Below the pieces are notes generated by a model that worked only from the letters and a program-made list of their open reading frames with translations, searched no databases and was not told the DNA's origin. A program made the translations under genes and the position numbers. Of a DNA stretch of 64,000 bases, positions 1 through 48,122 are shown piece after piece (positions within the stretch are counted from its first letter, which is position 1; every line of letters begins with the position of its first letter). This stretch comes from a phage: the NCBI GenBank assembly GCA_024672315.1, contig GCA_024672315.1_4714.1, one strand, 5' to 3'.

Positions 1-27
1 AAAAAAAAAAAAATAATGATAGTCACA

Positions 28-49
28 GGCTCTCCAATGAAGGAGAGCC
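28..49 (-). terminator. intrinsic terminator after gene 62-763
   Basis: 8-bp stem GGCTCTCC/GGAGAGCC with 6-nt loop; A13 at 1-13 gives a U-run on the minus transcript 14 nt past the hairpin. Confidence 0.55.
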
Positions 50-61
50 GTGACCGTCAGT

Positions 62-763
62 TTAGGATGCGGATAATCTCGCGTACTTCTGGCGAACATG
101 GTTCTTACGGCGAACTTCGTCGTCCTCGTCACGCCATTCGAGGTAAGCAACGAATCGACGTAACTGCGCTGCCGTCATCGTTGACGAGCGGTCTTCTACG
201 TCCAGAACAACGTAACGAACATCACCAACATCATCGCAATCAACGTAACTGAATACCAAAAGACCATCACCATATTCAACGATGGTAACTTCGAATCGTT
301 TATCGAACAAATAAAACAGTTCCGATTCAATGATCATTGGAATGACGCATAAATCGGCACGATTGAGGATTTCCATCATCACCCGTAACGCGCGAGGAGT
401 ATGACGAGCGAACTGGTCGTTAAAACGTTGTTTCATCGCTTGTTCCACGCCATCTGTTTTTGTTCCAAACCACGGACGTACTACAGATTTCGGTGGTGTA
501 AGACGAAAGCGATATGCTTGTATAAACAACAGAATATCAGCGACGTTGGGAAATTCTTCCTGGTCTTCGTATATCTTGCGGATAATATCCGGAATCGTAA
601 CCATCAAGTATTTCTTATCGCCTCCCACTTTCTCGAGATTAGCAATATGTCCTTCTACCACCGGCTGGTAAACGAAATTATACCAATGACGGTATCTTTC
701 GGTACGTTGGTAGTTTGGGATAAAATTAAGAATAATACTCACTGCGCGTTTTAACGGGTTCAT
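62..763 (-). CDS. hypothetical protein
   Basis: 233-aa ORF; ATG at 763 preceded by AAGGAT RBS; no motif recognised. Confidence 0.55.
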   Translation of the reverse strand: MNPLKRAVSIILNFIPNYQRTERYRHWYNFVYQPVVEGHIANLEKVGGDKKYLMVTIPDIIRKIYEDQEEFPNVADILLFIQAYRFRLTPPKSVVRPWFGTKTDGVEQAMKQRFNDQFARHTPRALRVMMEILNRADLCVIPMIIESELFYLFDKRFEVTIVEYGDGLLVFSYVDCDDVGDVRYVVLDVEDRSSTMTAAQLRRFVAYLEWRDEDDEVRRKNHVRQKYARLSAS

Positions 764-777
764 CGAAAGGATCCTTC

Positions 778-1191
778 TTATGTTTTAATATGCACATCGT
801 CAATCCCCTCGGTAATCCAGCCGATGGGAAGGACAATCGTTGTTATCGTGTTATGGGTGTAATGATTGAGAAAATGGAAATAGTAATTTTTGTTAGACTG
901 TTCAATCCGCAGGTCGAGGTGCGCGTCTTCAGGTAACCGTAACCATGCACCGTACAGTTCATTAAACTTACGCTGAATTTTACCGGGGTTCATTGGAACC
1001 CCACGACCACGACGATGTAGCTGACGTAATGATTCAATCAAACACTCAGAGATACCCGTTGTCGTTCCGTTATCGCTTGTATCAATAACGATGAACTCTC
1101 GTGACCCACGACCGAGATAAAAGCCAGCGACAAAAGCTGCAGCAACAAAAATTATCGTACCGATACCAATATACCAATAGTAAGTATCCAT
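778..1191 (-). CDS. small membrane protein (N-terminal TM helix)
   Basis: Track start at 1212 is TTG; ATG at 1191 has GAGG RBS; hydrophobic stretch YWYIGIGTIIFVAAAFVAGFYL near N-terminus. Confidence 0.45.
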   Translation of the reverse strand: MDTYYWYIGIGTIIFVAAAFVAGFYLGRGSREFIVIDTSDNGTTTGISECLIESLRQLHRRGRGVPMNPGKIQRKFNELYGAWLRLPEDAHLDLRIEQSNKNYYFHFLNHYTHNTITTIVLPIGWITEGIDDVHIKT

Positions 1192-1202
1192 AACGACCTC
1201 AC

Positions 1203-1730
1203 TTATACCCAATAGTCGGCAAGCGGTTTTACCTTATTAATGGGCAACTGTACTTTACCGATGTTCTCTACATCCGCATCAGCGTAGAGAACAATTTTAT
1301 CATCGTCTCTTTCCCAACGAATAGTAAATCGGCCAGGAAGAAGATTACCCTGTTCAAGAGACGCAGTAACCTGTTGTGTTAATACAGACAACCAAGCAGG
1401 CATCAGTGTTGCAATGTCTAAGTCATTTGACCATTCAGCACGTTGCTCCACTGGGCGTAACATACGTTCGACGGTGCGTTGAACCGTTGCGGTGATATAG
1501 CCTTTATCTTCGTCACTGATTGGATCAGGACGAGACACGAAACGTTCAGCAGGTTTACGGGAAATATGCTCATGCAAATCGATGAGTGGTGTTGTCATAG
1601 TACTCGCTCCATCAGAATGTAATTGGGTAACCCGTAGGGTTGTCTGCATGCTATTCAGAAGCGCAAAAGCGCCATAAACAACAACGATACCAAGTATAGC
1701 CAAAACAGAAATCATTAACGTGTATTGCAT
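1203..1730 (-). CDS. small membrane protein (N-terminal TM helix)
   Basis: Track start at 1778 is TTG; ATG at 1730 has GGGGAGA RBS; TM segment LMISVLAILGIVVVYGAFALL. Confidence 0.45.
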   Translation of the reverse strand: MQYTLMISVLAILGIVVVYGAFALLNSMQTTLRVTQLHSDGASTMTTPLIDLHEHISRKPAERFVSRPDPISDEDKGYITATVQRTVERMLRPVEQRAEWSNDLDIATLMPAWLSVLTQQVTASLEQGNLLPGRFTIRWERDDDKIVLYADADVENIGKVQLPINKVKPLADYWV

Positions 1731-1800
1731 TGTCGTCTCCCCTACATACGCATCTTGAAGATCGGTTAAAAACAACAAAAGAAAAAACGATATAAAGCAA

Positions 1801-1822
1801 GGTCCTCTGATATCAGAGGACC
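1801..1822 (-). terminator. intrinsic terminator after gene 1832-2488
   Basis: Perfect palindrome GGTCCTCTGATATCAGAGGACC followed on minus strand by T-rich tract. Confidence 0.6.
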
Positions 1823-1831
1823 TTGGATCAA

Positions 1832-2488
1832 TTAGCTTGCAGCTTCTTCATTTGTATCAGGTTTGCTTCCCCCTAACAAACCGTCAAACAGACCCGTATG
1901 TTTCAGGTAGAAGAGAGCGATAGCGCCCATTGCTGCTGCGCTCGTCGCCGTTAACGCAACCCCAGCACGATACTGCCATTTACGGTCAGGCTTTTGATCA
2001 AGAGCCATACGACGCATGTATTCAGCCTCTGCTTCATTCCGATGAATTTCGGATTCAGCCAAGCGGGCTAAGGTATCGCGGTCAAGGTTATCATAACGTA
2101 CGTTCATGGTGGTTTCCTCTTGTTTGGAAGTTGATTGCTTAATGGATTCTTGGTCAACAGTCGTTTCAGATGGTTCAAACGGCTGGTTGTTCATTTTCTG
2201 ATCTTTATTGGTCATGATAGACTCCTTCGATTTTTGAGATGAAATTGATTTAAACCATCGTGGATGGCAGTGTTCGGTTTTGCATGTACAGTTAAGTTTC
2301 TCGTGCAGGAAAGCGTAAAAACGTTTTGCGCCTACACGTAAGGCTTTCAGCATTACCCATCCACGAGCACTCAAACGGTGTAGCTGTTGCGGTATGTCTA
2401 GTTTCCTAGCCAAGCGAAAGTATCTTTCAATCACTTCGATAGGAAACCATTGTTGTTCCACATCGGTGAGACTGAAAGTCTTATCCAT
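1832..2488 (-). CDS. hypothetical protein with C-terminal TM helix and CxC..HxH cluster
   Basis: 218-aa ORF, ATG at 2488; motif NCTCKTEHCH; C-terminal hydrophobic AGVALTATSAAAMGAIALFYL; conserved 24-bp motif 24 nt upstream. Confidence 0.5.
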   Translation of the reverse strand: MDKTFSLTDVEQQWFPIEVIERYFRLARKLDIPQQLHRLSARGWVMLKALRVGAKRFYAFLHEKLNCTCKTEHCHPRWFKSISSQKSKESIMTNKDQKMNNQPFEPSETTVDQESIKQSTSKQEETTMNVRYDNLDRDTLARLAESEIHRNEAEAEYMRRMALDQKPDRKWQYRAGVALTATSAAAMGAIALFYLKHTGLFDGLLGGSKPDTNEEAAS

Positions 2489-2512
2489 GATTGAAATCTC
2501 GCTGGCTTACTT

Positions 2513-2536
2513 CACTTAAGTAATATAGCCGTGAAA
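2513..2536 (-). promoter_or_regulatory. conserved 24-bp motif, candidate phage promoter for gene 1832-2488
   Basis: Plus-strand CACTTAAGTAATATAGCCGTGAAA; 24 nt upstream of ATG 2488. Confidence 0.45.
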
Positions 2537-2638
2537 AATGTTGGATTAAGTTAAATACGGCAACCGCAACTAATTTTATAGGCTTTTAGCCTAAACCAAT
2601 CATCTTCGGAATCATCATCTTTGAAACAGGAACCTATC

Positions 2639-3460: not shown

Positions 3461-3467
3461 TCGTCGA

Positions 3468-3493
3468 GCCTGTCCTTCGGGGCAGGCTTTTTA
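3468..3493 (+). terminator. intrinsic terminator after gene 2639-3460
   Basis: GCCTGTCC-TTCG-GGGCAGGC stem-loop followed by TTTTTA. Confidence 0.75.
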
Positions 3494-3571
3494 TGCTGTT
3501 AAATATCAGGAATAAGAATTAACAAAATAGGAAAATGGTGTGAATATAACACAAAGGGGAGGGAGATGATT

Positions 3572-3688
3572 ATGTTACTCATTCTAATGGAGAGAGCATT
3601 GCTGGCGGGTATCTGCGCATTCTCTGTTAAACACGCTGTTGCTATCATGGCTGAAGAAAGGCGTAATACGCATAATGTATTACGCTGA
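3572..3688 (+). CDS. small hydrophobic peptide (38 aa), speculative
   Basis: Below track threshold; strong RBS GGGGAGGGAG 6 nt before ATG 3572 (in-frame ATG also at 3566); product MLLILMERALLAGICAFSVKHAVAIMAEERRNTHNVLR. Confidence 0.3.
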   Translation: MLLILMERALLAGICAFSVKHAVAIMAEERRNTHNVLR

Positions 3689-3797
3689 AAACACTGTGTG
3701 CATTAGTGTATGACGAGAAATCGTCGAGGCCCCCGTCTTCACGAGGGCCAACACCTATGCATGATTATCCATCGTCTGTTAAACAAAGGTTATAAAC

Positions 3798-4106: not shown

Positions 4107-4110
4107 AAAC

Positions 4111-4142
4111 CATCCTCCCAACCCGTAAGGGAAGGGAGGATG
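4111..4142. terminator. CCTCC-family hairpin H1 at convergent junction
   Basis: CATCCTCCC-AA-CCC-GTAA-GGG-AA-GGGAGGATG between stops at 4106 (+) and 4160 (-). Confidence 0.6.
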
Positions 4143-4159
4143 AAATATGCCGTTAAACG

Positions 4160-4789: not shown

Positions 4790-4805
4790 TCCCCGCTCCA
4801 ATTAA

Positions 4806-5987: not shown

Positions 5988-6019
5988 AACGTTTTCCTTC
6001 TTGGGTTTTGTACATGTTG

Positions 6020-10035: not shown

Positions 10036-11124
10036 ATGAGCGACCTGGCAACAGACAATCGCACAAAAGGGAGTCAGCTAGCTCCAGACAACAACGTAAG
10101 CGTTTTCCGTATCTATGCCTTGGGTACTGTTGCTGCCGACTTTTCCAATAAAAGTCTGGAAGAAGATCCTAACCAAACGCTGGAGGTCTTTCTTGATGAG
10201 ATGATGTCAGGTGCTGACGGGAAAGTTGAAGCGGCGGGAAGCGTGAAAGAAGTCAGTGCAACAGACGCTCAAGGGAACAGCTATACAGCGAAAGCGGCAA
10301 CAACAACCAGCGTACAGTGTTATTGGTTACCTTTCGGTAGTAACCGGATGACGGCACCTAACTTGAGGAAAGGTCAGCGTGTGGTGGTCTGGCGTACCGC
10401 CGATGAAGAACAACTCTACTGGCAGCCCAAAGGAGGGGATAGCGAGCTGATGACCATGGAATCAGTTATCCTCACCGTCAGCGCACGTCCTAGCGCTAAG
10501 AAGGACCGTAAATCGATTTCAACGGAAGACTGCTATTACCTAATGGTTGATACCTTCCTCAAGAAAGCGGTTATCGGCACCAGCGCGCAGCTTGGTGAAG
10601 TTACCCAAGTCTACATGGAACTTAATCTAGACGAGGGTTACTTACAGGTTGCGGACAGCGTTCATCAAAATCTGCTGTTACTCCATTTCGTTGAACATAT
10701 GCTGCGTTATCAAAACCAGGACGACAGCATCATCGACGTGACAAAAAAGAACATCACATTCCAGTGCGAGGATACGCTCAAAGCAATTGCTAAGAACGAT
10801 ATCCGAATGAAAGCAAAAAACATTTATACCGAATGTGAGAACTTCGAGCGTACCAGCAAAACAGAAAGCGTTACGAGTCAGAATGTTTCTTTGAAGTGTG
10901 ACCGTTACACCGCGCAAGTATCAGGACAGACCACGTTCAAATGTCCTAATACGGTATTCACTGGAGCTGTAAGCTTCACAGGTGAAGACGGGAACACGAT
11001 GACGTTGAATGGGAACTTCATACACATCGCAGGCTCTTGGCGTTCACCAACCGGAACAAACGTATACACCCACGATCACGGTGGTGTAGATCGTGGTAGC
11101 GGTCGTACAGACCCGTTCCAATAA
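10036..11124 (+). CDS. hypothetical protein, possibly baseplate spike-like
   Basis: ATG with AGGAGA RBS; N-terminal YWLPF..GQRVVVW resembles gpV/gp5 OB-fold signature (weak, from memory); Gly/Thr-rich C-terminus. Confidence 0.3.
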   Translation: MSDLATDNRTKGSQLAPDNNVSVFRIYALGTVAADFSNKSLEEDPNQTLEVFLDEMMSGADGKVEAAGSVKEVSATDAQGNSYTAKAATTTSVQCYWLPFGSNRMTAPNLRKGQRVVVWRTADEEQLYWQPKGGDSELMTMESVILTVSARPSAKKDRKSISTEDCYYLMVDTFLKKAVIGTSAQLGEVTQVYMELNLDEGYLQVADSVHQNLLLLHFVEHMLRYQNQDDSIIDVTKKNITFQCEDTLKAIAKNDIRMKAKNIYTECENFERTSKTESVTSQNVSLKCDRYTAQVSGQTTFKCPNTVFTGAVSFTGEDGNTMTLNGNFIHIAGSWRSPTGTNVYTHDHGGVDRGSGRTDPFQ

Positions 11125-11144
11125 AAAAAAGAAATGCAATACAA

Positions 11145-11179
11145 CCTCCTTCCCTAGCCATCAAGGCCGGGGAAGGAGG
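11145..11179. terminator. CCTCC-family hairpin H2 (variant loop) at convergent junction
   Basis: CCTCCTTCCC ... GGGAAGGAGG stem; A8 run 14 nt upstream on plus strand. Confidence 0.55.
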
Positions 11180-11194
11180 ATTATAGTTTATTTA

Positions 11195-11584
11195 TTAACG
11201 CGTTGCATTCTGGATGATTTCTTTTCCAATCTTAACCAAAGCGGGTATCTGTACAGCGGTTGCGCCTCGATGACGAAACGCGGTCGTTAACGCAGTATCG
11301 ATACTCACCGCACGTCCATGAAGACGATCGAAATAGACTTGAGTGATTGCGGTAGCGTAATCCTTTCGCTGTTTCTTGGTTTGGCTCAACAGCGCCGCAC
11401 TATGACTAACGATGAAGTAAGCGATTAAGAAGAACGCCGCTGAACGCGAACCGGGTAGAAAACCTTGTCGCTTAGGGAGCATCTCACAATCGCGAACAGA
11501 ATTATCGTTCGCCAGCTCTTCCATGTCAACGCAGCATAATTTTGCATAGGTGTGGAGATAGTGGGTAAAAGTTGAATTTAACAT
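11195..11584 (-). CDS. hypothetical small membrane protein
   Basis: 129 aa, GAGGAA RBS; hydrophobic AAFFLIAYFIVSHSAALL. Confidence 0.5.
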   Translation of the reverse strand: MLNSTFTHYLHTYAKLCCVDMEELANDNSVRDCEMLPKRQGFLPGSRSAAFFLIAYFIVSHSAALLSQTKKQRKDYATAITQVYFDRLHGRAVSIDTALTTAFRHRGATAVQIPALVKIGKEIIQNATR

Positions 11585-12052: not shown

Positions 12053-12053
12053 A

Positions 12054-12494: not shown

Positions 12495-12938
12495 TTAACG
12501 CTGTGTTCCATTCGATAAGCGGGTGGTATCAAAACGATCCAGTTGGTGTACAATGCTATCAGCAACACGATGCAAATAGTGTATTTTGTCCATTCGTGAA
12601 ATCGCAGAAATCGTCCAGCAAGCCTCTGACGTCCAATAGGTGCCGTCTTCACTAAGGCTAACGTTATAAACTAACTTCGTCATCACATTTCTCGCCTTAT
12701 GCTCAGCAGACCAGAATATGTTTTCTAACACATCCTTCCCCGTTTGTGAAAACACGAACCCAAGCTTCACGTCGAAGTCGGATGCTTCAAGATTAACGCA
12801 GTGAAGATGATTCTCTAACGGCGCAAAAGAGGCTAAACGTTCCAGCGCATGTTGCAGTGTGGGATGATCGAGCTTTTCGAGATCATCCGCAGGTTGTTCA
12901 GGTACAATCGCGATCGATTTACAGAATTTAATTTCCAT
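12495..12938 (-). CDS. hypothetical protein
   Basis: 147 aa, AGAGGA RBS. Confidence 0.5.
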   Translation of the reverse strand: MEIKFCKSIAIVPEQPADDLEKLDHPTLQHALERLASFAPLENHLHCVNLEASDFDVKLGFVFSQTGKDVLENIFWSAEHKARNVMTKLVYNVSLSEDGTYWTSEACWTISAISRMDKIHYLHRVADSIVHQLDRFDTTRLSNGTQR

Positions 12939-14924: not shown

Positions 14925-15005
14925 GTAAAAAGATCCTCTGTTTCACGTTAACTAAACAACGTGTTGATTTCTATTTGACAGAATACGAACATTGTACGTA
15001 TCTAT

Positions 15006-15028
15006 CACTTAGGTAACGCTTACGCGTC
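15006..15028 (-). promoter_or_regulatory. partial copy of conserved motif
   Basis: CACTTAGGTAACGCTTACGCGTC shares first 11 nt with the motif. Confidence 0.3.
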
Positions 15029-15031
15029 GCG

Positions 15032-15054
15032 TTCATGATGCATGGCATCATGAA
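15032..15054. promoter_or_regulatory. perfect palindrome, operator-like
   Basis: TTCATGATGC-ATG-GCATCATGAA between two promoter-motif copies. Confidence 0.4.
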
Positions 15055-15072
15055 GGTAATATAGTCGTGAAA
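15052..15072 (-). promoter_or_regulatory. conserved motif, candidate promoter for gene 14175-14924
   Basis: GAAGGTAATATAGTCGTGAAA, ~128 nt upstream of ATG 14924; abuts palindrome 15032-15054. Confidence 0.45.
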
Positions 15073-15758
15073 GGATTTGTGTTACAGCAAGGGTTTTGTT
15101 GTTTTTAAGAAGGGATGGATTTAGAAGAGGTGTTGCAAGCAAGGAAGGTAAACGAGGATAGGTATTTTGATTTAAGTAAGTAAGATGTTATCTGTATTCG
15201 TTAAAAGTGTATTGTCTATCTTAAGTTATGTCTTATTGTTTAATCGTTTAATATTTTTATCTAAATAGGTTTAACTCTATCTTGTTTGTATATTTAAATT
15301 AAATCAATAAGCTTATCTTCAAAACAATGGATAACATGTGTTTACTACCTTAACGGTAACACATGTCATCTGTGCATTACACTTCGTTACATGCTAATTA
15401 AATCGGATAACTCAAAAAACATTTGTGATACTCTTCTTCACGTTGTTCATCAGAGTATCCCGTCTATACTCATTGCATTCGTATACGACATAACCGTTAT
15501 ACGCTAACGCTACGCTTATAGCTTGATAACTCTAAGGATAAAAACATAAACTCGCTTCGCTCGTTTAGTTTTTCTTTTTCTTAGAGTTATCCTGTTGCTC
15601 GTCTCTAAAGGACTTCGCTCCTCCCCCGTCCCCCGAAGGGGCCGAGGTCGTGGAAATTTTACTTTCCAAATACATTTACAACATCTGTAAACTTTTACTC
15701 CAGGTACTTAATCTTATCATTAGAAATTATAAAAGAGAAGAATAAACACAAACATAAA

Positions 15759-15791
15759 CCTTCCTCCAACCCAACAGGGAAGGAGGAAGGG
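15759..15791 (-). terminator. CCTCC-family hairpin H3 after gene 15807-16700
   Basis: CCTTCCTCC-AA-CCC-AACA-GGG-AA-GGAGGAAGG; identical to H9. Confidence 0.65.
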
Positions 15792-15806
15792 AGAGATTAA
15801 TTAAAA

Positions 15807-26433: not shown

Positions 26434-27714
26434 ATGTATACATTGGTAAAAACTTACGGATTACCCGTAGGTTCTGGCACGGCCTGGACAGCGCTTGAGG
26501 CGGGTGAAAGTGTCCTGAGTACGTTGTTCTCAACGTATCAAAAACTCAAGATCCAGGTCCATGAAAGCTATGCTGACCAGCAACAAGTTATTGATCTGTA
26601 CACATTTCAATCCGAGCTTCAAAACAGCAGTGATACGCTCAATGCGTGGTTGAAAGCGAAATCGGATGCGCATACCAACCTTCGCGGACAGCCTGGTGAG
26701 CTGTCGATTAAAACCCACAAGCTTTATTGTCATGACGCTATTACGGTAGGCTTTCTCCCTAAAGTCGGTAATAGCGGTTATCATCCGAGCAACGCGATCC
26801 CTGAGTCGGAACGCACCGATATCCTGTTGACGAAAGCGAATACGAATTACGAAAATATCGGCAAACATTGTTTGTTCACCGTAGGTGGTTATGTCCATCC
26901 TCACGTTTACGGTAAAGACGTTGGTGTCTATATCCAAGGTGGGTTCAAGACAGCACAGCGTGGCCAAGAAAACGATATCGGCATGATTGATTTTAGCCGT
27001 ATTGGGAGTTTGGAAATCCATGCTATCACAGAAGAGATGATTGCTGATTCCACGAAGCTCTTGCCGTATAAGGACGAGATGTACTTGCGGTTACCGCGCA
27101 AGGTCGCCGAAGATGAAACCGTCGCGCTGGTGTTCGGGGGATATTTACATCTTCTTGACGATTGTTACACGATCGTTAGCGACACGACAGCGAAAATAAA
27201 CTGCATTAACATGTTTCTCTATGAACGATACTTCCGCTCCCGCAAATACCTCGATCTAACATCTCTTGGTATTCTGTTGAACGAAGAAGACCCACAGTCC
27301 GACATTGTTGCCAATCGTTTATTGTCAGATAAAGCATTAAAAGCGTGGGTGACACATCCTTGCAGTTTCTGGGTGTATATCAAAGCAACATCAATTCAGG
27401 TTACGCAAGAACCTTTACCACGAAGTGGTGTACCAGGACAATATTTCTTAGGTAAGAAACCGGAAGGATTGATTCGAGCCGATCTTGGTGAGTTACCGGC
27501 TTACGTACAGACCTATGAAAAACCGTTATGGGTACTTCACTCGCGCTGGGGACTTCGTAAGAACATGTTGTTTGAAAACACATTGTACAAACATACCCGC
27601 GTTAAGCGGCTTAACGATACGCCTTATCTTCACCAGGTCTGGTTGGAAACGCATGCGACGTTGCAGACAGTACACAAGCTCGAATTGATCGATTCCAGTC
27701 AGAAAAACAAATAA
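26434..27714 (+). CDS. hypothetical protein
   Basis: 426 aa; plus-strand gene between tail-fibre cluster and paralog cluster; ends at hairpin H4. Confidence 0.55.
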   Translation: MYTLVKTYGLPVGSGTAWTALEAGESVLSTLFSTYQKLKIQVHESYADQQQVIDLYTFQSELQNSSDTLNAWLKAKSDAHTNLRGQPGELSIKTHKLYCHDAITVGFLPKVGNSGYHPSNAIPESERTDILLTKANTNYENIGKHCLFTVGGYVHPHVYGKDVGVYIQGGFKTAQRGQENDIGMIDFSRIGSLEIHAITEEMIADSTKLLPYKDEMYLRLPRKVAEDETVALVFGGYLHLLDDCYTIVSDTTAKINCINMFLYERYFRSRKYLDLTSLGILLNEEDPQSDIVANRLLSDKALKAWVTHPCSFWVYIKATSIQVTQEPLPRSGVPGQYFLGKKPEGLIRADLGELPAYVQTYEKPLWVLHSRWGLRKNMLFENTLYKHTRVKRLNDTPYLHQVWLETHATLQTVHKLELIDSSQKNK

Positions 27715-27724
27715 CCAAACATAA

Positions 27725-27756
27725 CCCTCCTCCAACCCGTCAGGGAAGGAGGAGGG
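27725..27756. terminator. CCTCC-family hairpin H4 at convergent junction
   Basis: CCCTCCTCC-AA-CCC-GTCA-GGG-AA-GGAGGAGGG between stops at 27714 (+) and 27766 (-). Confidence 0.6.
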
Positions 27757-27765
27757 AATATGCTG

Positions 27766-33883: not shown

Positions 33884-36793
33884 ATGAACGATATAAATAA
33901 AGGGCGCGTCGCCCTCGAACGTCAAATGAGTAATAATGACGTTGCGAAGGCACTCATGAACAAATTTGTCGCTCCTGCTCCGCAGTCACGTCTTTATAAT
34001 ACACGTGATGCGGAAGGAGCGAACGGTCGTTTCGGGTTAGTTGTTCCCGACCAAATGACGATGAACACGGTTACGCGTGCGACCGCGACAAACATCGAGG
34101 ATAATAAAAACATCCTCGAGTTGTTCCCTGAACTTAAACGCGTGATGCAGATCTATGTTGCCGCGTTGACGAACCCTAACGATCTTAAGACGGTCGAGAT
34201 GTTTATCGACAGCGAAGATTTCCCCGGCAGAGTCGCAGAAATCGTTCAGCCGATGATCGATACCATCGACACGCATTTTAAGAATATCTATAAAATAAAG
34301 ACGCTTATCCCTCGTATCATCGAAGACGTCTTCTTTATCAAGGGCAGTTATAACTTCGTTGTTCTGCCAGAAAGCACGCTCGACCGCGCCATTAATGGTA
34401 ACGGTCAACTGAAACTTGAAGAATACGGATTTAAAGACAACCATTTTGCAAGTTGGGGGCTTCTAGGTAACGACAGTCGCAAACGCCACGAAAATCAATT
34501 ACCTGCGACGGTTTCGATGGAAGATTATTTCTCAGGCGTTAATGAAACCATACCGTACGATCCTGTTGTTCGCATAGACAGCATTAAGTTTACCAATACC
34601 CTGCTTCGTGATAAGGACGGTAAATTCATTGAAGCGAAGATCGATATTCCGGATATGGTTACGGTTGTCGATAACCCAGACATCCTCCGCATGCCTATTC
34701 TACATCAACGTCGAGCAGCGACCGCGGTACAACGTGCGTTACGTGCGAACACGTTAGGTGGTAGTGGTTTGGTAACACTGTCAGGTGATCCGACCCTAAC
34801 CGCTAACCGACGTGAGCTGTCGCAAGAACAGGTTAACGAGATTTGGAATAAACTCAACATCCAGCGTCACACCAAGGTATCTCCCGTTTACGCGTTGGCA
34901 ACCCCAGATACACTCGATCGTCAAAGCGTTGGTCATCCTGGCGTGATGCACGTACCACCTGAGGCATTAGAACCCGTACATGCACCAGGTGATCCGGAGA
35001 ACCATATCGGGTATTTAGTTCAGTTGGATGAGTTTGGTTATCCGGTGCGTTTGGTTGAAGACGCAGCGTATTACAAGCAGTTGGAAGGTCGATTGTCGAA
35101 GATCACCGCGGATATCGCAGGTACGTCAAGCAACGGCATGGCGAGCGAGATGATCGGCGCAGCCAAGAACATGATCCAAGGTACGTCATGTAATCAGGTA
35201 GACATGTCGGCCTTCGTATCGTCGTACGAATCGCTGATGCAACGTTACATTGTTGAACGTATCGTTAACGGCTATCTTGGCAGTGCGGTGGAAATCGGCG
35301 CGACATCATCGTTCTATTTGTCTATGCTTGCTCGTAGTCTCGCTCACAAGCAGACCCGTGTTTTGTTTATTCCTCGAGAGATGGTGACTTACATCGCCTA
35401 TGAATACAACAAATACGGTATCGGTCGTTCGCTGCTTGAAAGTACGAAAATGATCTCGTCGCAACGAGCCATGCTCATGGTTCAAGAACTGATGGCGAAA
35501 ATCAAAAGTTCGTTGAACTATACGACGTTAAGCGTAATGCTTGAAGACACCGACAGAAACCCGGTCGATACCGTCGAACAAGCACTACATAGTTTCGCTC
35601 GTGTCTACCAGTCTGGTTTCCCGTTGGGTGAAACTAACCCGATGGATATCATCAATGCGTACGAACGAAGCTCGATTCGATTGAAGGTTGAGGGGAATAA
35701 CCCACGCTTCCCGAAATTGAATACAGACGTCAGCGTTGAGCAGCGCAACTATCAGTCTCCTGATAATGAGCTGATGGATCGTTACCGTCGTGACCATTTC
35801 ATGGGCTTGGGCGTTTCTCCGGAGATTATCGATACTTCCTACCAATCTGAATTCGCAGCTTCTGTGATTACAGCTAACGCGATGCAGGAGAAACAGTTCA
35901 CGGTTTGTCGTGAGGTGATCACGAATGGGTTATCGGACCACATCAAGAAATACACGGCATACAGTCCCGTGTTGTTGACGTCGTTACGAAACACGGTTCG
36001 TGCGAACATGTCTAAGCTCTCCCAGGCACAATTGAAGCAGCTTTTTGGTAGCGATTTCGAAAACGGTGTTATCCGTAACGTTAACGCCTATCAGGAGATT
36101 GACGACCAATCAGCAACAATGGATCTGGATTACACTAAACCAGAAGTCCAGGAAGTTATTGCCGATGCTTATGTGTCCATGTTCTTAAACAGCCTGCGTG
36201 TGCGTTTACCGGATAGCAATGCTCGTCGCCTTGAAGATCAGGTACGTGAATATAATCAGTACAAGGAAGCGATTACTGCGCAACTTGATGATTATTTAAC
36301 GCCTGATTACGTCATGGGTCTGGGTGGGGTTGATGAAACAACGCTGCAGATGATTCGTGCATGCATTATTGGTACCGCGATGCGTACGTGGGCAAAAGAG
36401 AACAACTTCAATCAGGAGCTAGCTGATCTCTTCAGTCTTGACGATAAGAAGAATGCCGTGCAAGATTGGAAACGTATGTCCATGGAACATATTGAAGTCA
36501 TGGGTAAATGCATGGGTGATTTTGCATTGTATATTCAGAATCTGACGAAGAAGATTGAAGAGAAGATGGGCGCTCAAGCACAGGATGGTAGCGTTTCATC
36601 TGACGGTTCTTGGTCATCCGATTCAAGTAGCGATACCGGTTCTTCTGATGACTTCGGTGGCGGTGACGATTTCGGGGATACCGATTTCGATACCGAAACG
36701 ATGGAGGAAACCTCAACAGAAGAAACAACCACATCTGAGGATACGACGACCGACACAACGTCAGAAGACGATACTTCAGGTGATATTGTCTAA
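33884..36793 (+). CDS. large virion-type protein with acidic Ser/Thr/Asp/Glu-rich C-terminal tail (portal only a guess)
   Basis: 969 aa; ATG with AAGGAG RBS; last ~65 aa low complexity; followed by A-run and hairpin H5. Confidence 0.55.
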   Translation: MNDINKGRVALERQMSNNDVAKALMNKFVAPAPQSRLYNTRDAEGANGRFGLVVPDQMTMNTVTRATATNIEDNKNILELFPELKRVMQIYVAALTNPNDLKTVEMFIDSEDFPGRVAEIVQPMIDTIDTHFKNIYKIKTLIPRIIEDVFFIKGSYNFVVLPESTLDRAINGNGQLKLEEYGFKDNHFASWGLLGNDSRKRHENQLPATVSMEDYFSGVNETIPYDPVVRIDSIKFTNTLLRDKDGKFIEAKIDIPDMVTVVDNPDILRMPILHQRRAATAVQRALRANTLGGSGLVTLSGDPTLTANRRELSQEQVNEIWNKLNIQRHTKVSPVYALATPDTLDRQSVGHPGVMHVPPEALEPVHAPGDPENHIGYLVQLDEFGYPVRLVEDAAYYKQLEGRLSKITADIAGTSSNGMASEMIGAAKNMIQGTSCNQVDMSAFVSSYESLMQRYIVERIVNGYLGSAVEIGATSSFYLSMLARSLAHKQTRVLFIPREMVTYIAYEYNKYGIGRSLLESTKMISSQRAMLMVQELMAKIKSSLNYTTLSVMLEDTDRNPVDTVEQALHSFARVYQSGFPLGETNPMDIINAYERSSIRLKVEGNNPRFPKLNTDVSVEQRNYQSPDNELMDRYRRDHFMGLGVSPEIIDTSYQSEFAASVITANAMQEKQFTVCREVITNGLSDHIKKYTAYSPVLLTSLRNTVRANMSKLSQAQLKQLFGSDFENGVIRNVNAYQEIDDQSATMDLDYTKPEVQEVIADAYVSMFLNSLRVRLPDSNARRLEDQVREYNQYKEAITAQLDDYLTPDYVMGLGGVDETTLQMIRACIIGTAMRTWAKENNFNQELADLFSLDDKKNAVQDWKRMSMEHIEVMGKCMGDFALYIQNLTKKIEEKMGAQAQDGSVSSDGSWSSDSSSDTGSSDDFGGGDDFGDTDFDTETMEETSTEETTTSEDTTTDTTSEDDTSGDIV

Positions 36794-36827
36794 ACGGACG
36801 TAAAAAAAAAAAATAACACATAGTTAA

Positions 36828-36863
36828 CCTTCTCCCCAACCCGATGAGGGAAGGGGAGAAGGG
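36828..36863. terminator. CCTCC-family hairpin H5 at convergent junction
   Basis: CCTTCTCCCC-AA-CCC-GATGA-GGG-AA-GGGGAGAAGG; A12 run 14 nt upstream on plus strand. Confidence 0.6.
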
Positions 36864-36879
36864 CTATGCGCTATTTAAT

Positions 36880-43256: not shown

Positions 43257-43290
43257 TTTTTTCTATTCGCAACGATAAACGGCATAGAAA

Positions 43291-43320
43291 CCTCCCCCAA
43301 CCCTTACGGGCTGAGGGAGG
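43291..43320 (-). terminator. CCTCC-family hairpin H6 downstream of major virion protein gene
   Basis: CCTCCC ... CCC-TTAC-GGG ... GGGAGG, about 100 nt past stop; promoter motif 35 nt further on minus strand. Confidence 0.55.
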
Positions 43321-43419
43321 CTGACTTATGTATCACGGTGCCGGATGAATGTCCGGTGCAATGAAACCATCCGCAACGTTGTCGTCAAGAATATCATCCA
43401 ACGAAGCAGCTACGGTAGT

Positions 43420-45642
43420 TCAGTTAGTCTGAACAGGCAGCTTGATGTTTTCAGTGTAGACCTTACGCAGGTTCACAACGTTAATCAGACCCAGCAGCGG
43501 GCAGTTGTTAACGAAGCGGCAGCGCGGCTGAACCATGGTTTCTTTAGAAACCTGACCGTTACGGGTAACCTGAGCAACAGATACCAGTTCCGGTACATAC
43601 AGGAACATACCGAAGGTCAGCGGATCCGGAGAACCCTGGATACCACGAGACAGGGTCACGAAGATCTTATCACGCAGCATGACGTTCGGGTTATCTACAA
43701 CCACGAAGTTGAAGCTTACACCAACGGTACGGAAATCACCATCGGTCTGCAGGAACTGCGGGATGTAGTTGTCAGTTGCTACTACGCAACGCGGTTTCTC
43801 ATCAGCGTTGGAAGACAGCAGCTGCAGAGCTGGCTGATAACCAGACTCGGAGTACATGCGGTATGCCATTTCACGAATCACGTTCATGATCGCAGCAGAC
43901 ACTTCAGCACGACGTTCTGCAGTGGTGGTACCCTGAACAGATTTCTCCAGGTCCAGATTGATTTCTTCGAACCACGGACGGATCAGGTAACGACCGAAAC
44001 CTTCGATCTGGATGTCGCCGAACTGACGGAAGCGAGAGGTCGCAACCGCTTTCAGTGCGTCTTTGTAGCTGAACAGTTTCTCAACCATCAGGTTGTCGAA
44101 ACGTGCGTTAGCAGCCTGGATCAGAACGTCCAGGTCAGCAGCGTTTTCTTCCCAATCCAGCGGACGAGGAATGGAGAACGGAGCCAGCAGGCCGATTGCG
44201 TAACGTTCTTGCTTCATGTTGAAGTCAAGGTGCTTACCGCGTTCACGACGGTTGCTGTTGTTACGACGGATACGCAGTTCGTAACCAACCAGTTTGAAGC
44301 TCAGGTCTTCAGCCAGCTGTTTGAACTCTTCGCTCTTACGCGGTTGTTCGATGTTGTCCTGATCAACCAGGCGATACAGTTCAGCGTTAGCGCCGTTAAC
44401 ACGCAGACCGGCTTTCTCTACGTTGGAAGAACCGTAAACTTCGATTGCCAGCTGAGCAGCGGATTTCGAATCGATGATGTCCTGCAGCGCTTCAGCTCGT
44501 GCACCTTTAACGTCAACGGTGTGCTCATCAACGAAGATGGAGTGGGTGTCGAACGCCAGGGTCATTTTGCGGAAGTCGCCTTCCAGGGATTTCTGGAAAC
44601 CGTTGGTGATCAGACCAGATACGTCGAACGGTACGTAAGAGGTTTTGCTGTGCTTGGTAGATTTGATTTCCACCAGGATTTTGGTCAGCGTGATCTGAGC
44701 ATCCAGCGCATCGGTGTTGTCGCTGTAACCGTTAGCCAGAATGCTATCGTCTTCAGCGATACCGATCATGTCGATCAGTTTATCAACAGCCAGGTAAGAC
44801 GTTTTATAAGTTACGCCTTTAATTTCGATGTCGCGCGGAGCAACGATAGTTTTGTCAACGAAGTACTGCGCGTTAGCATCGTCAGCACGATAGATCGGAT
44901 GCAGATCGGTCACGTCGTTGGACAGAACGTCGTTGTACATGAACGCATCCAGCAGCGGACGACGTACCCAATCAGCCGGAGTACCGTCAGCGTTACGGCG
45001 CAGGTGGTTGAACACCAGCGGACGACGGAAAGATACATCGTAACCGATCTGGTTCGGAGCCAGAACGATGGTGTTGTACAGTTCGTTACCCATGCGGCTC
45101 AGACGAGAAGCCTTCACGTTGAACACAACGGAGTACGGCATCATGTCACGCAGTTCTTTCTGGTCGTAGGACAGCTGAACCAGTTCTTCAGATTCGCAAC
45201 CGCAGGAATCAGCAGCCATCATGACGAAGTTAGAGCTGTCAACTTCACGGCCAGACGGAGTGGTGCTGATGTTCATGGAACGTGCTTGTTTAGCATATTC
45301 CACCGGGTTGCCATGAGCCAGCATGATCAGTGCTGCTGCACGAGCCTGCTGTGCGTTCATGGTGAACAGCTGTTCTTCAATACGCTGCTTCTCTTCCGGA
45401 GTGGTGGTTTCGAAGCCCAGCATGGACAGAACCGGTTCTTCTGCTTTACGGATGTCGCTGCTGAAGCTCTTAACATCCATTTCGTTAACCAGTTTGTCCA
45501 TGGATTTGAAATCAACCTTAGAAGCAGATTCCATAGACAGGAAGGTGTTCTCCAGACCTTTGTCTGCTGGTTTGCTACCATTAGCGGTCAGGAACTGGCG
45601 AGTGGCCGCGACCTGTTGGCTAAGAAGGGTTTTATCATTCAT
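43420..45642 (-). CDS. major virion structural protein, tentatively major capsid (tail sheath not excluded)
   Basis: 740 aa; extreme enterobacterial codon bias; AAGGAT RBS; size fits large-phage capsid proteins; N-terminal ~160 aa contain several S/A/G-x-E sites. Confidence 0.45.
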   Translation of the reverse strand: MNDKTLLSQQVAATRQFLTANGSKPADKGLENTFLSMESASKVDFKSMDKLVNEMDVKSFSSDIRKAEEPVLSMLGFETTTPEEKQRIEEQLFTMNAQQARAAALIMLAHGNPVEYAKQARSMNISTTPSGREVDSSNFVMMAADSCGCESEELVQLSYDQKELRDMMPYSVVFNVKASRLSRMGNELYNTIVLAPNQIGYDVSFRRPLVFNHLRRNADGTPADWVRRPLLDAFMYNDVLSNDVTDLHPIYRADDANAQYFVDKTIVAPRDIEIKGVTYKTSYLAVDKLIDMIGIAEDDSILANGYSDNTDALDAQITLTKILVEIKSTKHSKTSYVPFDVSGLITNGFQKSLEGDFRKMTLAFDTHSIFVDEHTVDVKGARAEALQDIIDSKSAAQLAIEVYGSSNVEKAGLRVNGANAELYRLVDQDNIEQPRKSEEFKQLAEDLSFKLVGYELRIRRNNSNRRERGKHLDFNMKQERYAIGLLAPFSIPRPLDWEENAADLDVLIQAANARFDNLMVEKLFSYKDALKAVATSRFRQFGDIQIEGFGRYLIRPWFEEINLDLEKSVQGTTTAERRAEVSAAIMNVIREMAYRMYSESGYQPALQLLSSNADEKPRCVVATDNYIPQFLQTDGDFRTVGVSFNFVVVDNPNVMLRDKIFVTLSRGIQGSPDPLTFGMFLYVPELVSVAQVTRNGQVSKETMVQPRCRFVNNCPLLGLINVVNLRKVYTENIKLPVQTN

Positions 45643-45791
45643 TGAAAGTATCCTTTACAGAATTAACTTATATAAGTCGGTCGATAGACCATAGCGTACA
45701 CGCGTGCATGCGCCACTATAGTATCAGTAAACACTTACCGTTATTGAGGTCGTGATACAACACTAAAAATGCCGCATAACTTTTCCCTACG

Positions 45792-46412
45792 TCACAAACG
45801 ACGCAGGCGATAATGGATGGAACGATTGGTGCAATATGAACGGAACAGCGGCAATTGCGCAACTTCCGCAAGACTCATATTAATTCGCAGGTGTTCAATA
45901 ACGGCGCTGTAGTTATCAGCAATACGATCGCTCAATAACTCTTCTGCCAATAAAGGAAGACAATCGACAACAATCGCGATCACATCCTCATTAACATAAC
46001 GCACCCGAACACTCAACGGACGTTTGTCTGGGCTGTAAGTTGGATCCGCCAAACGACGTTCAATATCACGCGGATAGCTCGTCAGTAAATGGTAATAACC
46101 ATTGTCATAACGATTGATGTACTCACACAGCACATCAACATTCTTCTCTGGCGGCAAACCTGTTTCGTCATAGTGATACGCAAACATACCACCAAGCAAG
46201 TTGTTAAGATGAACCGCAGGGTTCGCTTGTTCGTGTTCTTTCGTGATGAAGAAAGGCACGTTCTGGGCTGCGAAATAAAAACCTACATCATTGGGCGATA
46301 GTATGCCGAAAAGACTTTTAGGGTCTAATAACACCTGTAAGTCATCACGCGCATTTCGAATAATCGCGTGTTCTACCCAATTCGGAACGACGAGATATCG
46401 GAGTTCCTTCAT
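45792..46412 (-). CDS. hypothetical protein
   Basis: 206 aa; ATG with AGAGG RBS; divergent from helicase gene. Confidence 0.5.
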   Translation of the reverse strand: MKELRYLVVPNWVEHAIIRNARDDLQVLLDPKSLFGILSPNDVGFYFAAQNVPFFITKEHEQANPAVHLNNLLGGMFAYHYDETGLPPEKNVDVLCEYINRYDNGYYHLLTSYPRDIERRLADPTYSPDKRPLSVRVRYVNEDVIAIVVDCLPLLAEELLSDRIADNYSAVIEHLRINMSLAEVAQLPLFRSYCTNRSIHYRLRRL

Positions 46413-46451
46413 TATGATTACCTCTTTGCAAGTATCGAAAGGATTGAGTCG

Positions 46452-48062
46452 ATGGACCCAAAACAGATAGCCATTAAGATTATTACGTTACTGTTTCGTA
46501 ATGCACAATTGAACCATCCCGATCCCAGTACGATCGAACATGTTAAATCCGTCTTAGATAAAGTCGAACCCCCGAAAAACCATCTCGCTACAGACGTAGA
46601 TAGAGAGGTTTTCAGCAACCTGATGAACACCATTCATTGGATGCTGGAACAACCGTTATCGGAACCTTTCGATAAACAACAGTTGTTACAAAGGATACGT
46701 TTAGATTGCCTTGAACAAAGCAACCTTTACGAGATTCTTGCCGACGGACTGTACGATATCGAAGACGACGCTCATATCAGTAAGGTCTGTTCGCTCTATT
46801 ACAATGAATTACGTAATCTGATTACCCGTCGTCGTGTTTTCGAAACCTTTAAAAACACGTACATGGATATCAGTAACGGGCGACTTGGGGATAAAGAATT
46901 TTTCGATGCGATGGCGAATTTGAAATTATCGCTAGACAGTATCGAAATGGATACCGAAAATCCCGAAGAGATGTCGTGTATGATTGACGGCTTTATCGCT
47001 GACAGTGAAGACGATATCGAGAAAGTTGAACGTATGTTCGTCAAAGCGATGGAACGTAACAGTCCTGAAGGTGGGTTTGTAACCGGCTGGCAAGGCTTTA
47101 ATAAAATGTTGGGGTCGGTCGGCGTTTTACGTCGCGGTACCTTAGGACTGATTGGTGCAATGCAGCACCGGAACAAGTCAGGTGTGTTGTTAAAACTGTT
47201 CACGCATCTGGCACTGTACAATAAACCCCATTTCTTTTTTCCGGAGCGAGCAAAGAAAGCACTACTGATTCATTTGTCAACCGAAAACGAAGTGGAAGAA
47301 AACACGCTTCAAATATACAAGAACATGCGAGAACAGGAAACAGGCGAATATGTCGATATTCGTAAGATTGACCCTCGCGAGGCATCACGTTATGTGTTGA
47401 AGGTGTTCAATGATGCGGGTTTCTCTGTTTGTATGCGTCGTGTTGATGGGATGAGCTATAAACAACTCGCTAATCTCATCGACCATTTCGAACGCATGGG
47501 TTATGAAGTCATGGCGTTGTTCATTGACTATCTGAAAATGTTCTCATCGGAAGGGTTGGATAGAAATGGGCCGACCGGCGCATGGCTCCAAGAACTCTTT
47601 AACAAAGTACGTAACCTCTGCAGCGTTAAACGTATTTTAGGTATGACCGTACACCAGCTGTCATCCGATGCGAAGATGCGTGCGCGTGATGGCAACGATG
47701 AAGAGTTCGTTGACCAGGTCGCGGGTTTAAGTTACTGGGATGGTTGTAAAGGGATTGACCGTGAGATTGACCTTGAAGTGATTGTTGATATCGTTAAGGA
47801 ACCGGGCAAACGTCAAAGCTGGCAGGTCTTTGCGTTAGGGAAAGACCGTCAACCGGATAACGGTTCAACGAAACCTGAAGACAAACATTTCGCGATGCCA
47901 TTCCAAACCATCGGGATGCTTCCTGATGATTACGGTAAGAAAGCAGTATACTGCCGCAAGGTTGGCGGACAACCTGTCTCCGAGGGAGGTAAAGGTCCGT
48001 GGAACAAGTTCGATGAAAACGCAGCACCGAGTAATGAATTACAATTTGATTTAGAATTTTAA
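46452..48062 (+). CDS. DnaB-like replicative helicase (RecA-fold ATPase)
   Basis: Track start 46368 is GTG; ATG 46452 with AAAGGA RBS; motifs in DnaB order: Walker A-like GAMQHRNKSG, H1a LIHLSTE, Walker B LFIDYL, H4-like TVHQLSSDAKMRAR. Confidence 0.6.
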   Translation: MDPKQIAIKIITLLFRNAQLNHPDPSTIEHVKSVLDKVEPPKNHLATDVDREVFSNLMNTIHWMLEQPLSEPFDKQQLLQRIRLDCLEQSNLYEILADGLYDIEDDAHISKVCSLYYNELRNLITRRRVFETFKNTYMDISNGRLGDKEFFDAMANLKLSLDSIEMDTENPEEMSCMIDGFIADSEDDIEKVERMFVKAMERNSPEGGFVTGWQGFNKMLGSVGVLRRGTLGLIGAMQHRNKSGVLLKLFTHLALYNKPHFFFPERAKKALLIHLSTENEVEENTLQIYKNMREQETGEYVDIRKIDPREASRYVLKVFNDAGFSVCMRRVDGMSYKQLANLIDHFERMGYEVMALFIDYLKMFSSEGLDRNGPTGAWLQELFNKVRNLCSVKRILGMTVHQLSSDAKMRARDGNDEEFVDQVAGLSYWDGCKGIDREIDLEVIVDIVKEPGKRQSWQVFALGKDRQPDNGSTKPEDKHFAMPFQTIGMLPDDYGKKAVYCRKVGGQPVSEGGKGPWNKFDENAAPSNELQFDLEF

Positions 48063-48090
48063 ACGCAAAAAAAAAAAAGATTGTGCGGTT

Positions 48091-48122
48091 CCCTCCTCCA
48101 ACCCGTAAGGGAAGGAGGAGGG
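48091..48122. terminator. CCTCC-family hairpin H7 at convergent junction
   Basis: CCCTCCTCC-AA-CCC-GTAA-GGG-AA-GGAGGAGGG; A12 run 12 nt upstream on plus strand. Confidence 0.6.

Follow-up and report, generated by a model that had tools for sequence, protein, structure and literature searches.

Long A-runs beside hairpins at convergent gene junctions of a Goslar-like phage: probable U-tracts of bidirectional phiKZ-type terminators

A 64-kb stretch of phage DNA (hereafter, the window) contains four long A-runs on its plus strand, each located next to a strong hairpin between two convergent genes. The run and the hairpin are best read together as a nested, two-stage, bidirectional intrinsic terminator of the type known from phage phiKZ, in which the run, transcribed from the other strand as an oligo-U tract, would halt majority-strand transcription before it enters the convergent gene. 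Judging from the sequence, we assign a probability of about 0.65 to the reading that each A-run is the complement of the oligo-U tract in the minus (majority) arm of such a terminator between convergent genes.

The window is Goslar-like: a 4-kb probe matched Escherichia phage vB_EcoM_Goslar (Chimalliviridae, 237,307 bp) with 97.5% identity over the full probe length, and the coordinates of the Goslar record are offset from those of the window by ~20-40 nt. Goslar has 247 annotated coding sequences, 216 in minus and 31 in plus orientation, with 20 convergent (plus, then minus) and 196 co-directional minus junctions.

A-runs, hairpins and strand polarity

The components of the four sites are listed below, followed by two hairpins of the same family at run-less convergent junctions that were used for comparison.

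1-13, plus strand (T13 on the minus strand): A13 run, followed by T-AA; putative oligo-U tract with which the terminator of the minus-strand gp001-like gene ends
17-59: terminator hairpin of site 1, with the core 28-49 (GGCTCTCC-AATGAA-GGAGAGCC) and outer pairs reaching 17-59; -28.2 kcal/mol, z = -7.4
62-763, minus strand: gp001-like gene, the transcript of which reaches the site 1 hairpin and then the U-run
11123-11130, plus strand: A8 run of site 2, overlapping the TAA (11122-11124) that ends the baseplate gene 10036-11124
11131-11144: spacer of site 2, GAAATGCAATACAA; its minus-RNA complement UUGUAUUGCAUUUC is predicted to pair with 11180-11185 and 11203-11210 (outer helix)
11145-11179: core hairpin of site 2, CCTCCTTCCC-TAGCCATCAAGGCCG-GGGAAGGAGG; the stop of the gp014-like minus gene is at 11195-11197
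36802-36813, plus strand: A12 run of site 3, 8 nt past the stop of the portal gene 33884-36793
36811-36876: two-tier hairpin of site 3, core 36828-36862; -45 kcal/mol, z = -6.6
48067-48078, plus strand: A12 run of site 4, 4 nt past the stop of the DnaB-like helicase gene, which ends at 48062
48085-48133: hairpin of site 4, core 48091-48122 (CCCTCCTCC-AA-CCC-GTAA-GGG-AA-GGAGGAGGG), outer helix GCGGT/ACCGC, with GTTATGACC next on the plus strand
4111-4142: comparison hairpin at the convergent gp007/gp008-like junction, without an A-run
27720-27762: comparison hairpin at the convergent gp030/gp031-like junction, without an intergenic A-run, with CATAA and (A)ATATG boxes on its flanks

The four runs, which are present where an earlier note on this DNA had located them, are the only homopolymers of 8 nt or longer in the window. 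All of them are on the plus strand, and this strand carries no T run of that length. Under a first-order Markov model of the window, 0.008 A-runs of 12 or more nucleotides are expected and three are observed, whereas 3.6 plus-strand T runs of 8 or more are expected and none is found; in Goslar, 10.7 such T runs are expected and one is found. An octamer scan of the window returned 17 overlapping matches, all on the plus strand, compared to 6.5 +/- 3.5 in dinucleotide shuffles. The single Goslar plus-strand T run of this length, at 92437, is within the coding sequence of gp081.

The position of the runs relative to the hairpins and genes is narrowly defined as well. The distance from the run to the hairpin core is 14, 14, 14 and 12 nt at sites 1 to 4, where the 14-nt figure counts from the inner core only (the stem at site 1 goes on outward to position 17), and, at the three sites where the plus-strand gene is visible, the run begins 0, 8 and 4 nt past the stop codon of the baseplate, portal and DnaB-like helicase genes, respectively (gp36 is the named portal protein; bioRxiv 10.64898/2026.04.21.720040). 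The measurements agree with the earlier note in both respects, that is, a location 12-14 nt on the 5' side of hairpins at convergent junctions and a start directly after the plus-strand stop. The run at site 1 is clipped by the start of the window, so that it reads A13-T-AA here and A13 to A17 in the relatives, in which a second hairpin and TTATGCCGTCAAGC lie just upstream, beyond the window edge.

Each intergenic region between the plus-strand stop and the minus-strand stop (70, 86 and 76 nt) contains one hairpin. Folded as minus-strand RNA, the site hairpins have energies between -28 and -45 kcal/mol and z between -4.3 and -7.4. The 3' side of the hairpins on the plus strand is merely T-rich or interrupted (TATTTAATTTATTT, TTTATTTATT and CTTTGATT). 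No Rfam family matched the window at its gathering score. In Goslar, one strong hairpin is present in 16 of the 19 annotated convergent intergenic regions, as well as at the junction spanning the ends of the record, and most of these hairpins belong to one family, with the core of site 4 or variants thereof followed by a (T)TATGC(C/T)GT box. The same box also follows most of the co-directional Goslar terminators.

The run is concentrated at convergent junctions. It is present at 4 of the 7 convergent junctions touching the window compared to none of the 11 strong hairpins after co-directional minus genes (Fisher p = 0.011), and in Goslar the enrichment amounts to 5 of 17 versus 1 of 56 (p = 0.002). 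The earlier note had maintained that hairpins after co-directional minus genes lack the tract, which holds throughout the window and fails outside of it, at two Goslar loci described below (T8 and T10-CG-T11). Overall, the runs are non-random, strand-specific and tied to convergent junctions, so that the reading proposed in that note is supported in part. The run-less convergent junctions are shorter (51-53 nt versus 70-86 nt with the run), with the stop located 4-10 nt from the hairpin, and would depend on the hairpin plus the box. At the end of Goslar gp192 (232590-232610) and of the gp030-like gene of the window (~27700-27714), C-terminal Lys/Asn codons (…GCG AAA AAA TAA and …CAG AAA AAC AAA TAA) put T6 and T5, respectively, on the opposite strand, ~11 nt and ~17 nt past the hairpin. 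At these two genes, the coding sequence itself provides part of the opposite-strand terminator tail.

Several observations bear on the strand to which the run belongs. In all 7 Goslar intergenic loci with an A or T run of at least 8 nt, the T residues are on the minus, majority strand (binomial p = 0.016). Two of the seven are between co-directional minus genes, namely, a hairpin-T8 at 86,147, where the T8 abuts the hairpin, and T10-CG-T11 at 108,101 (gp094/gp093), 9 nt past the hairpin; because both flanking genes are on the minus strand, these runs can be read solely as U-tracts of minus transcripts. In the first 50 kb of the SPN3US-like phage SPFM16, 10 of the 10 T runs of 7 nt or longer are on the majority strand, directly abutting hairpins. 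In Goslar, at the gp187/gp001 junction, which corresponds to site 1 of the window, and in Klebsiella phage Eowyn, at the tail-tube junction, the plus-strand gene is followed by its own hairpin, then by the A-run and then by a second hairpin, which serves the opposite gene. The run at these two junctions is beyond the hairpin of the plus-strand gene and therefore, if this first hairpin terminates, outside the plus-strand mRNA. Given the strand polarity, the co-directional cases, SPFM16 and the two-hairpin junctions together, we assign the run to the transcript that would read the hairpin first and the U-run second.

Spacer and extended stem on the minus transcript

In a canonical terminator, the gap between the stem and the U-tract is 0-2 nt, and the earlier note had concluded from the 12-14 nt separation that the U-run is displaced from the hairpin in a non-canonical manner. 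That conclusion is not supported once the minus RNA is folded: the distance is 12-14 nt when counted from the core, and only 3, 1 and 0 nt (sites 1-3) and 6 nt (site 4) remain unpaired between the predicted extended stem and the U-run, which equals or approaches the canonical gap at sites 1-3 and exceeds it at site 4. At site 1, UUA alone separates the stem from U13. At site 2, UUGCAUUU pairs with the segment 5' of the core, leaving 1 nt. At site 3, a 13-bp outer helix, AAAUAGCGCAUAG / CUAUGUGUUAUUU, in which the spacer 36814-36827 and the first bases of the run pair with 36863-36876, runs into the U-tract. At site 4, a 5-bp GCGGU/ACCGC helix leaves ACAAUC (6 nt) unpaired before U12.

When the spacer alone was shuffled (1000 shuffles for each site), 2, 55, 4 and 85 of the shuffled sequences folded as well as the native one at sites 1 to 4, and, at two further Goslar sites, 308 and 119 per 1000 did so. 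The six results, combined by Fisher's method in our own calculation, give about 5e-5. In 42 non-redundant related sites, among the matches listed, the median spacer is 14 nt and the median number of unpaired nucleotides before the run is 1, and the complementarity of the spacer to the 5' flank of the hairpin exceeds that of shuffled versions (combined p = 1.6e-19). According to these folding predictions, the 12-14 nt spacer would be largely the 3' arm of an outer helix, and the U-run would mostly not be displaced from the stem. The extended stem thus largely accounts for the apparent non-canonical displacement.

Conservation in close and distant relatives

A protein search of IMG/VR yielded only three near-identical genomes, namely, Goslar itself and two others, R1 and R2. 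In the phage collection, there are no intermediate relatives between Goslar itself and the next match, at ~34% protein identity. The lengths of the runs in the four genomes are as follows.

Site 1: window, 13 or more; Goslar, 17; R1, 13; R2, 16
Site 2: window, 8; Goslar, 6; R1, 8; R2, 8
Site 3: window, 12; Goslar, 9; R1, 7; R2, 9
Site 4: window, 12; Goslar, 9; R1, 8; R2, 10

All four runs are kept in the window, Goslar, R1 and R2, while their lengths range from 13 to 17, 6 to 8, 7 to 12 and 8 to 12 nt (sites 1 to 4) among genomes that are 97-99% identical. The comparison with related phages, in which a missing tract would, according to the earlier note, have refuted its proposal, turned up variable length and no close relative lacking a tract, which leaves its proposal standing on this count. 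The length drift appears to fit slippage-prone homopolymers held above a functional minimum, although sequencing error may contribute to it. Within the outer helices, a G to A substitution at site 4 gives G-U on the minus RNA and A-C on the plus RNA, and R1 carries a T to C substitution at site 3; these changes are compatible with pairing on the minus RNA but too few to count.

The comparison of the close relatives yielded several further observations. An A6 at 15414-15419 of the window, inside a stretch of ~880 nt free of open reading frames (ORFs; 14925-15806), is A9 in R1. The hairpin interiors of R2 at sites 1, 2 and 4 (28-49, 11145-11179 and 48091-48122) are the exact reverse complements of their counterparts in R1, Goslar and the window; site 4, for instance, has TTCCCTTACGGGTT in place of AACCCGTAAGGGAA, with the arms unchanged. 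To judge by this pattern, the flips are small inversions between inverted-repeat arms, similar to the minute hairpin-loop inversions of chloroplast spacers. The Goslar GenBank record both starts and ends within the A17 run, with ~56 nt duplicated (1-56 and 237252-237307), and the window, too, starts in this run; the ends of the Goslar record look like an assembly break at a homopolymer and not like a true genome end. On the plus strand of the window, a 766-codon open frame (43345-45645) runs antisense over the whole 740-codon major head protein gene (43420-45642, minus strand); it is an unusually long shadow ORF, the head gene being annotated on the minus strand in Goslar.

A scan of IMG/VR with the pattern CCTCC-N8-30-GGAGG-N3-18-T9 found at least 120 loci, of which ~38 encode homologues of Goslar proteins with 25-40% identity and are from distant chimalliviruses. 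The layout in these phages, among the matches listed, is ACGGCATAA-hairpin-[..TATGYYGT..]-T9-11. The gene on the strand of the T-run usually ends ~11-13 nt before the hairpin in the listed matches, and the end of the T-run is no more than 8 nt away from a convergent ORF's stop in 24 of the 42 chimallivirus-like sites compared to 7 of the 68 sites from other phages (p = 1.8e-7, among the matches listed). In the listed sites with a TATG box, the far end of the T-run is within 8 nt of such a stop in 17 of 24. The strand of the T-run is the locally dominant coding strand in 22 of the 42 listed loci, a count that is uninformative given how short the loci are.

Many of these sites, again among the matches listed, are orthologous to Goslar junctions, namely, those of the tail tube (at least 5 contigs), the helicase (at least 2), gp187, gp203, gp030, gp233 and gp172. 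A T10 is present at the helicase junction of a phage with a 32%-identical helicase. The tail-tube junction takes several forms: TAA-A6-GCAGCATAAGC-hairpin-TTATGCCGG in Simmy50; A10, 7 nt and a hairpin in SPFM16; an A8 that directly adjoins the hairpin, the opposite side having T5, in RSL2; an A8 between two hairpins in Eowyn; and no run in PhiEaH1. In phiKZ itself, the gp041.3/gp042 junction reads GGCATAAG-CCCTCCC-GCAAT-GGGAGGG-CATTATGTC-T9-A-T8, up to the stop of gp042, the convergent gene. The helicase junction of 201phi2-1 and the tail-tube junction of phiKZ are co-directional in these phages and hence uninformative. Across the family, the distance from the core to the run varies from 0 nt (RSL2) to 18 nt, depending on the presence and form of the box region. 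The inference of the earlier note that a fixed spacing reveals a composite signal thus survives with respect to the composite, which is conserved in phiKZ, the named genera and the ~38 IMG/VR loci among the matches listed, and does not survive with respect to the spacing. The composite is thus a family-wide feature. In phiKZ L145, a hairpin-13 nt-T8 arrangement on the plus strand at 12540-12584, within a block of minus-strand genes, immediately 3' of the terminase gene, reads stop-A8-spacer-hairpin on the terminase strand. The run at this site is placed as if it would halt antisense read-through ahead of a long structural operon.

Proposed mechanism, alternatives and known systems

In the mechanism that we propose, a phage RNA polymerase would come to the end of a minus-strand block, whose final gene is gp001-, gp014-, gp037- or gp044-like, and then encounter the first stage of the terminator, the GC-rich core hairpin plus a short U-rich box of the TATG type, as at every terminator of the phiKZ-type family. 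Polymerases that read through this stage would transcribe the remaining 12-14 nt, which could pair with the 5' flank of the hairpin and lengthen the stem by about 5-13 bp. In the second stage, 8-17 template A residues would produce an all rU:dA hybrid right behind the long stem. A long stem directly before an all rU:dA hybrid is the canonical configuration for transcript release. The second stage would sit 0-8 nt before the stop of the oncoming plus-strand gene, preventing antisense transcription of that gene and head-on collisions. In the plus direction, the same hairpin with its own (T)TATG box would end the plus-strand gene, the A-run forming the first part of its 3' untranslated region (UTR). 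Above about 8 nt, the length of the run is probably unconstrained and drifts by slippage. The runs close long minus-strand gene blocks (in the case of site 3, a block to which the major head protein gene belongs). Polymerases reading through from these blocks would give rise to antisense RNA and collisions in the portal, helicase, baseplate or tail-tube genes.

Several points weigh against this interpretation. About two thirds of the Goslar convergent junctions have no long run, which is therefore not required. A simple scan for canonical terminators misses all four sites, because the stems carry internal loops. In the bidirectional terminators of this family, a box is present on either flank of the hairpin (…GCATAA-hairpin-TTATGC…), and, as these boxes are complementary to each other, part of the flank complementarity comes from the box architecture itself; the complementarity may be a by-product of a TATG-type (TTATG) box on each side and not a trace of selected RNA pairing. 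At site 4 and at Goslar gp161, 6 unpaired nucleotides precede the U-run, and the outer helices are individually not significant (85 and 308 per 1000 shuffles). The proposed mechanism does not account for the presence of the long run on only one side of the hairpin. Finally, minus-strand termination at the run is inferred from the sequence.

It appears unlikely that the oligo-T acts independently of the hairpin, whether as an oligo(dT) stop for the non-canonical polymerases or as a quencher of an embedded TATG box resembling a late promoter. In the quenching variant, transcripts starting at the G of TATG would reach U9-U17 within 0-10 nt and would be lost through reiterative or abortive transcription, so that antisense RNA is suppressed. 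This idea draws on the fact that the TATG core is the late promoter of the phiKZ non-virion RNA polymerase (nvRNAP), with the start at G, recognised by a core beta-like subunit (PMC4666361, PMC12809450). Furthermore, the T-run begins 0-10 nt past TATG in at least 24 IMG/VR sites; TATG plus T-run is nearly confined to convergent junctions, and 7 of the 7 co-directional T-run cases (from Goslar and the IMG/VR matches listed) lack TATG between the hairpin and the run; and, at co-directional junctions, the hairpin-TATG precedes the next start codon by 20-45 nt, as expected of a promoter. However, a spacer TATG in the minus direction is present in only 1 of the 4 window sites (36802) and 3 of 6 Goslar-like loci, no quenching run accompanies the TATG boxes that face in the opposite direction, towards the minus genes, the firing of the Goslar boxes as promoters remains putative, and the extended stem already accounts for the spacing. 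By eye, without a formal test, we counted a minus-direction TATG at 3 of the 6 Goslar junctions with a run versus 9 of the 11 without, a seemingly non-significant difference between small numbers. If the oligo-T did act as a signal of this kind, a terminator, a promoter and an insulator would be packed into ~60 nt, and the restriction of TATG plus T-run to convergent junctions could be explained. At many co-directional Goslar junctions, such as that at record position 180588, a (T)TATGCYGT box lies 20-45 nt before the next start, and the window has one at 3466-3500 (plus strand); the same ~40 nt at co-directional junctions may serve as both terminator and promoter.

Quite improbable is the reading of the runs as functionless, neutral slippage homopolymers that gather beside A-rich stop contexts (TAA-A...). 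The lengths indeed differ among 97-99% identical genomes, two of the runs fuse with the TAA stop, and most convergent junctions lack a run, but neutral slippage is disfavored by the strict strand polarity, with 0 intergenic T runs on the plus strand, by the fixed position relative to the hairpins, by the retention of the run at all four sites in four genomes, and by its recurrence in phiKZ and at orthologous junctions of phages with 25-40% protein identity. The A-rich C-terminal Lys/Asn codons of Goslar gp192 and the gp030 gene, which supply T6 and T5 on the other strand, speak against it as well, and the conservation data have already weakened this reading. Slightly less credible still is a role of the A-run in the 3' UTR of the plus-strand mRNA, be it as a binding site for Hfq or for a phage-nucleus factor that binds RNA or mediates its export, or as a spacer shielding the hairpin from terminating ribosomes. 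Such a role would be in line with the distance of 0-8 nt from the convergent gene's stop to the start of the run, both in the window and in 17 of the 24 TATG-box sites among the matches listed, and with the identity of the conserved partner, which is the plus-strand gene (tail tube, helicase or portal) and not the small minus-strand gene. It is difficult to reconcile, however, with the location of the run downstream of the plus-strand gene's own terminator hairpin at Goslar gp187/gp001 and in Eowyn, with the two Goslar runs at co-directional minus junctions, readable solely as U-tracts, with the presence of a run at only 5-6 of the 31 plus-strand genes, or with the run-less junctions, at which the stop is 4-10 nt from the hairpin; moreover, the published enhanced crosslinking and immunoprecipitation (eCLIP) analysis of ChmC, done in PhiPA3, found no binding motif. 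Finally, a signaling function at the DNA level is hardly plausible for the run, be it in packaging, at a genome end, in replication or as a bent-DNA element. The start and end of the Goslar record within a run, with ~56 nt duplicated, and the start of the window in the same run hint at such a signal; however, the duplicated ends look as if an assembler had broken off at a homopolymer, the corresponding junction is internal to the contigs of R1 and R2, and the remaining runs are dispersed over ordinary gene junctions. Phages of the phiKZ group are generally regarded as having circularly permuted genomes, which is a further argument against a genome-end signal.

Two more specific candidates were rejected. 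A genome-end or packaging signal was discarded in favor of an assembly break at the homopolymer. In the phiKZ middle promoter, an A-rich repeat is combined with TTAC at ~22 nt before the start (PMC8244752, PMC4666361), and a promoter function of the A-run was dismissed because only site 3 is similar (AAAATAACA), the start would be inside the hairpin, and no plus-strand gene follows. A sigma-70 promoter scan of the window gave fewer promoter-like matches than expected from shuffles.

If the bidirectional terminator interpretation is correct, it provides an annotation rule for the ends of transcription units in nucleus-forming jumbo phages, that is, at convergent junctions, a stop, ~11 nt, a phiKZ-type hairpin, a TATG box, an oligo-T and another stop, at sites that standard terminator finders overlook. 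It also suggests how the minority-strand portal, tail-tube and helicase genes escape antisense read-through where phage polymerases transcribe the entire genome. In phage engineering, such elements could be a source of strong two-way insulators, and the polymorphism of run length calls for caution in assembly and variant calling. The general view of termination would remain unchanged unless the promoter-quenching explanation proves true.

Among the known systems, bidirectional Rho-independent terminators of bacteria, in which a single hairpin between convergent genes has an A-tract on its 5' and a U-tract on its 3' side, were reportedly described by Ju, Li and Liu in 2019 (Nat Microbiol). These terminators share with the window sites the use of one hairpin for both strands, the identity of the A-run as the U-tract of the other strand, and the location between convergent genes, and the RSL2 tail-tube junction, A8-hairpin-T5, is a plain form of such a terminator. 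In contrast, the window element is asymmetric, with a long run on one side only; its run is split from the GC-rich core by a box region of 9-14 nt that is predicted to form the outer helix; and the polymerases are phage-encoded, non-canonical multisubunit enzymes and not the host enzyme. Tandem, or fail-safe, terminators and the hairpin-independent oligo(dT) termination by RNA polymerase III and archaeal RNA polymerase likewise involve a second stop signal right after the first one or a long, destabilizing rU:dA hybrid, but the two stages in the window are nested on one hairpin instead of being formed by two separate hairpins. Reiterative transcription at T-runs near the start site is known from E. 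coli pyrBI, codBA and upp. A T-run within ~10 nt of a potential start (the G of TATG) is common to these genes and the sites described here, whereas initiation at the terminator-embedded TATG is putative, so that the likeness is limited to the promoter-quenching reading.

The closest counterpart is the phiKZ terminator motif, 5'-BCCYCCCCHWWDGGGRRGGBYTTATKYYGT-3', which was identified at 3' ends that had been mapped by experiment, six regions between convergent genes being bidirectional (Putzeys et al. 2024, PMC10914365); 201phi2-1 has the same motif ('motif A'), with 15 bidirectional sites (PMC11512511). The shared features are the CCYCC/GGRGG-rich stem, the position at gene ends and the bidirectional forms between convergent genes, as well as, in part, the (T)TATG(C/T)(C/T)GT box. 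In the window, arms of the CCTCC/GGAGG type are present in the cores of sites 2, 3 and 4, and site 1 has GGCTCTCC/GGAGAGCC. On the plus strand, the boxes 3' of the stem are GTTATGACC at site 4, GCTATGCGC at site 3 and ATTATAGTT, without TATG, at site 2; in the minus direction, site 3 has a partial box (TTAACTATGTGTTA), and sites 1, 2 and 4 lack TATG. Most of the other Goslar terminators fit the TTATKYYGT box well. The differences are that the published motif stops at the box, that the minus-direction boxes at sites 2 and 4 of the window are degenerate, and that the window hairpins are two-tier, with an inner CCC-GNRA-GGG, and lengthened by the pairing of their flanks. In the published accounts of the phiKZ-type motif, we came across neither a long oligo-T following the box nor the confinement of such a tract to convergent junctions. 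Judging by its sequence, the hairpin part is the known phiKZ-type element, and the long, one-sided U-tract would add a previously undescribed, though not unexpected, feature to a terminator of a known kind.

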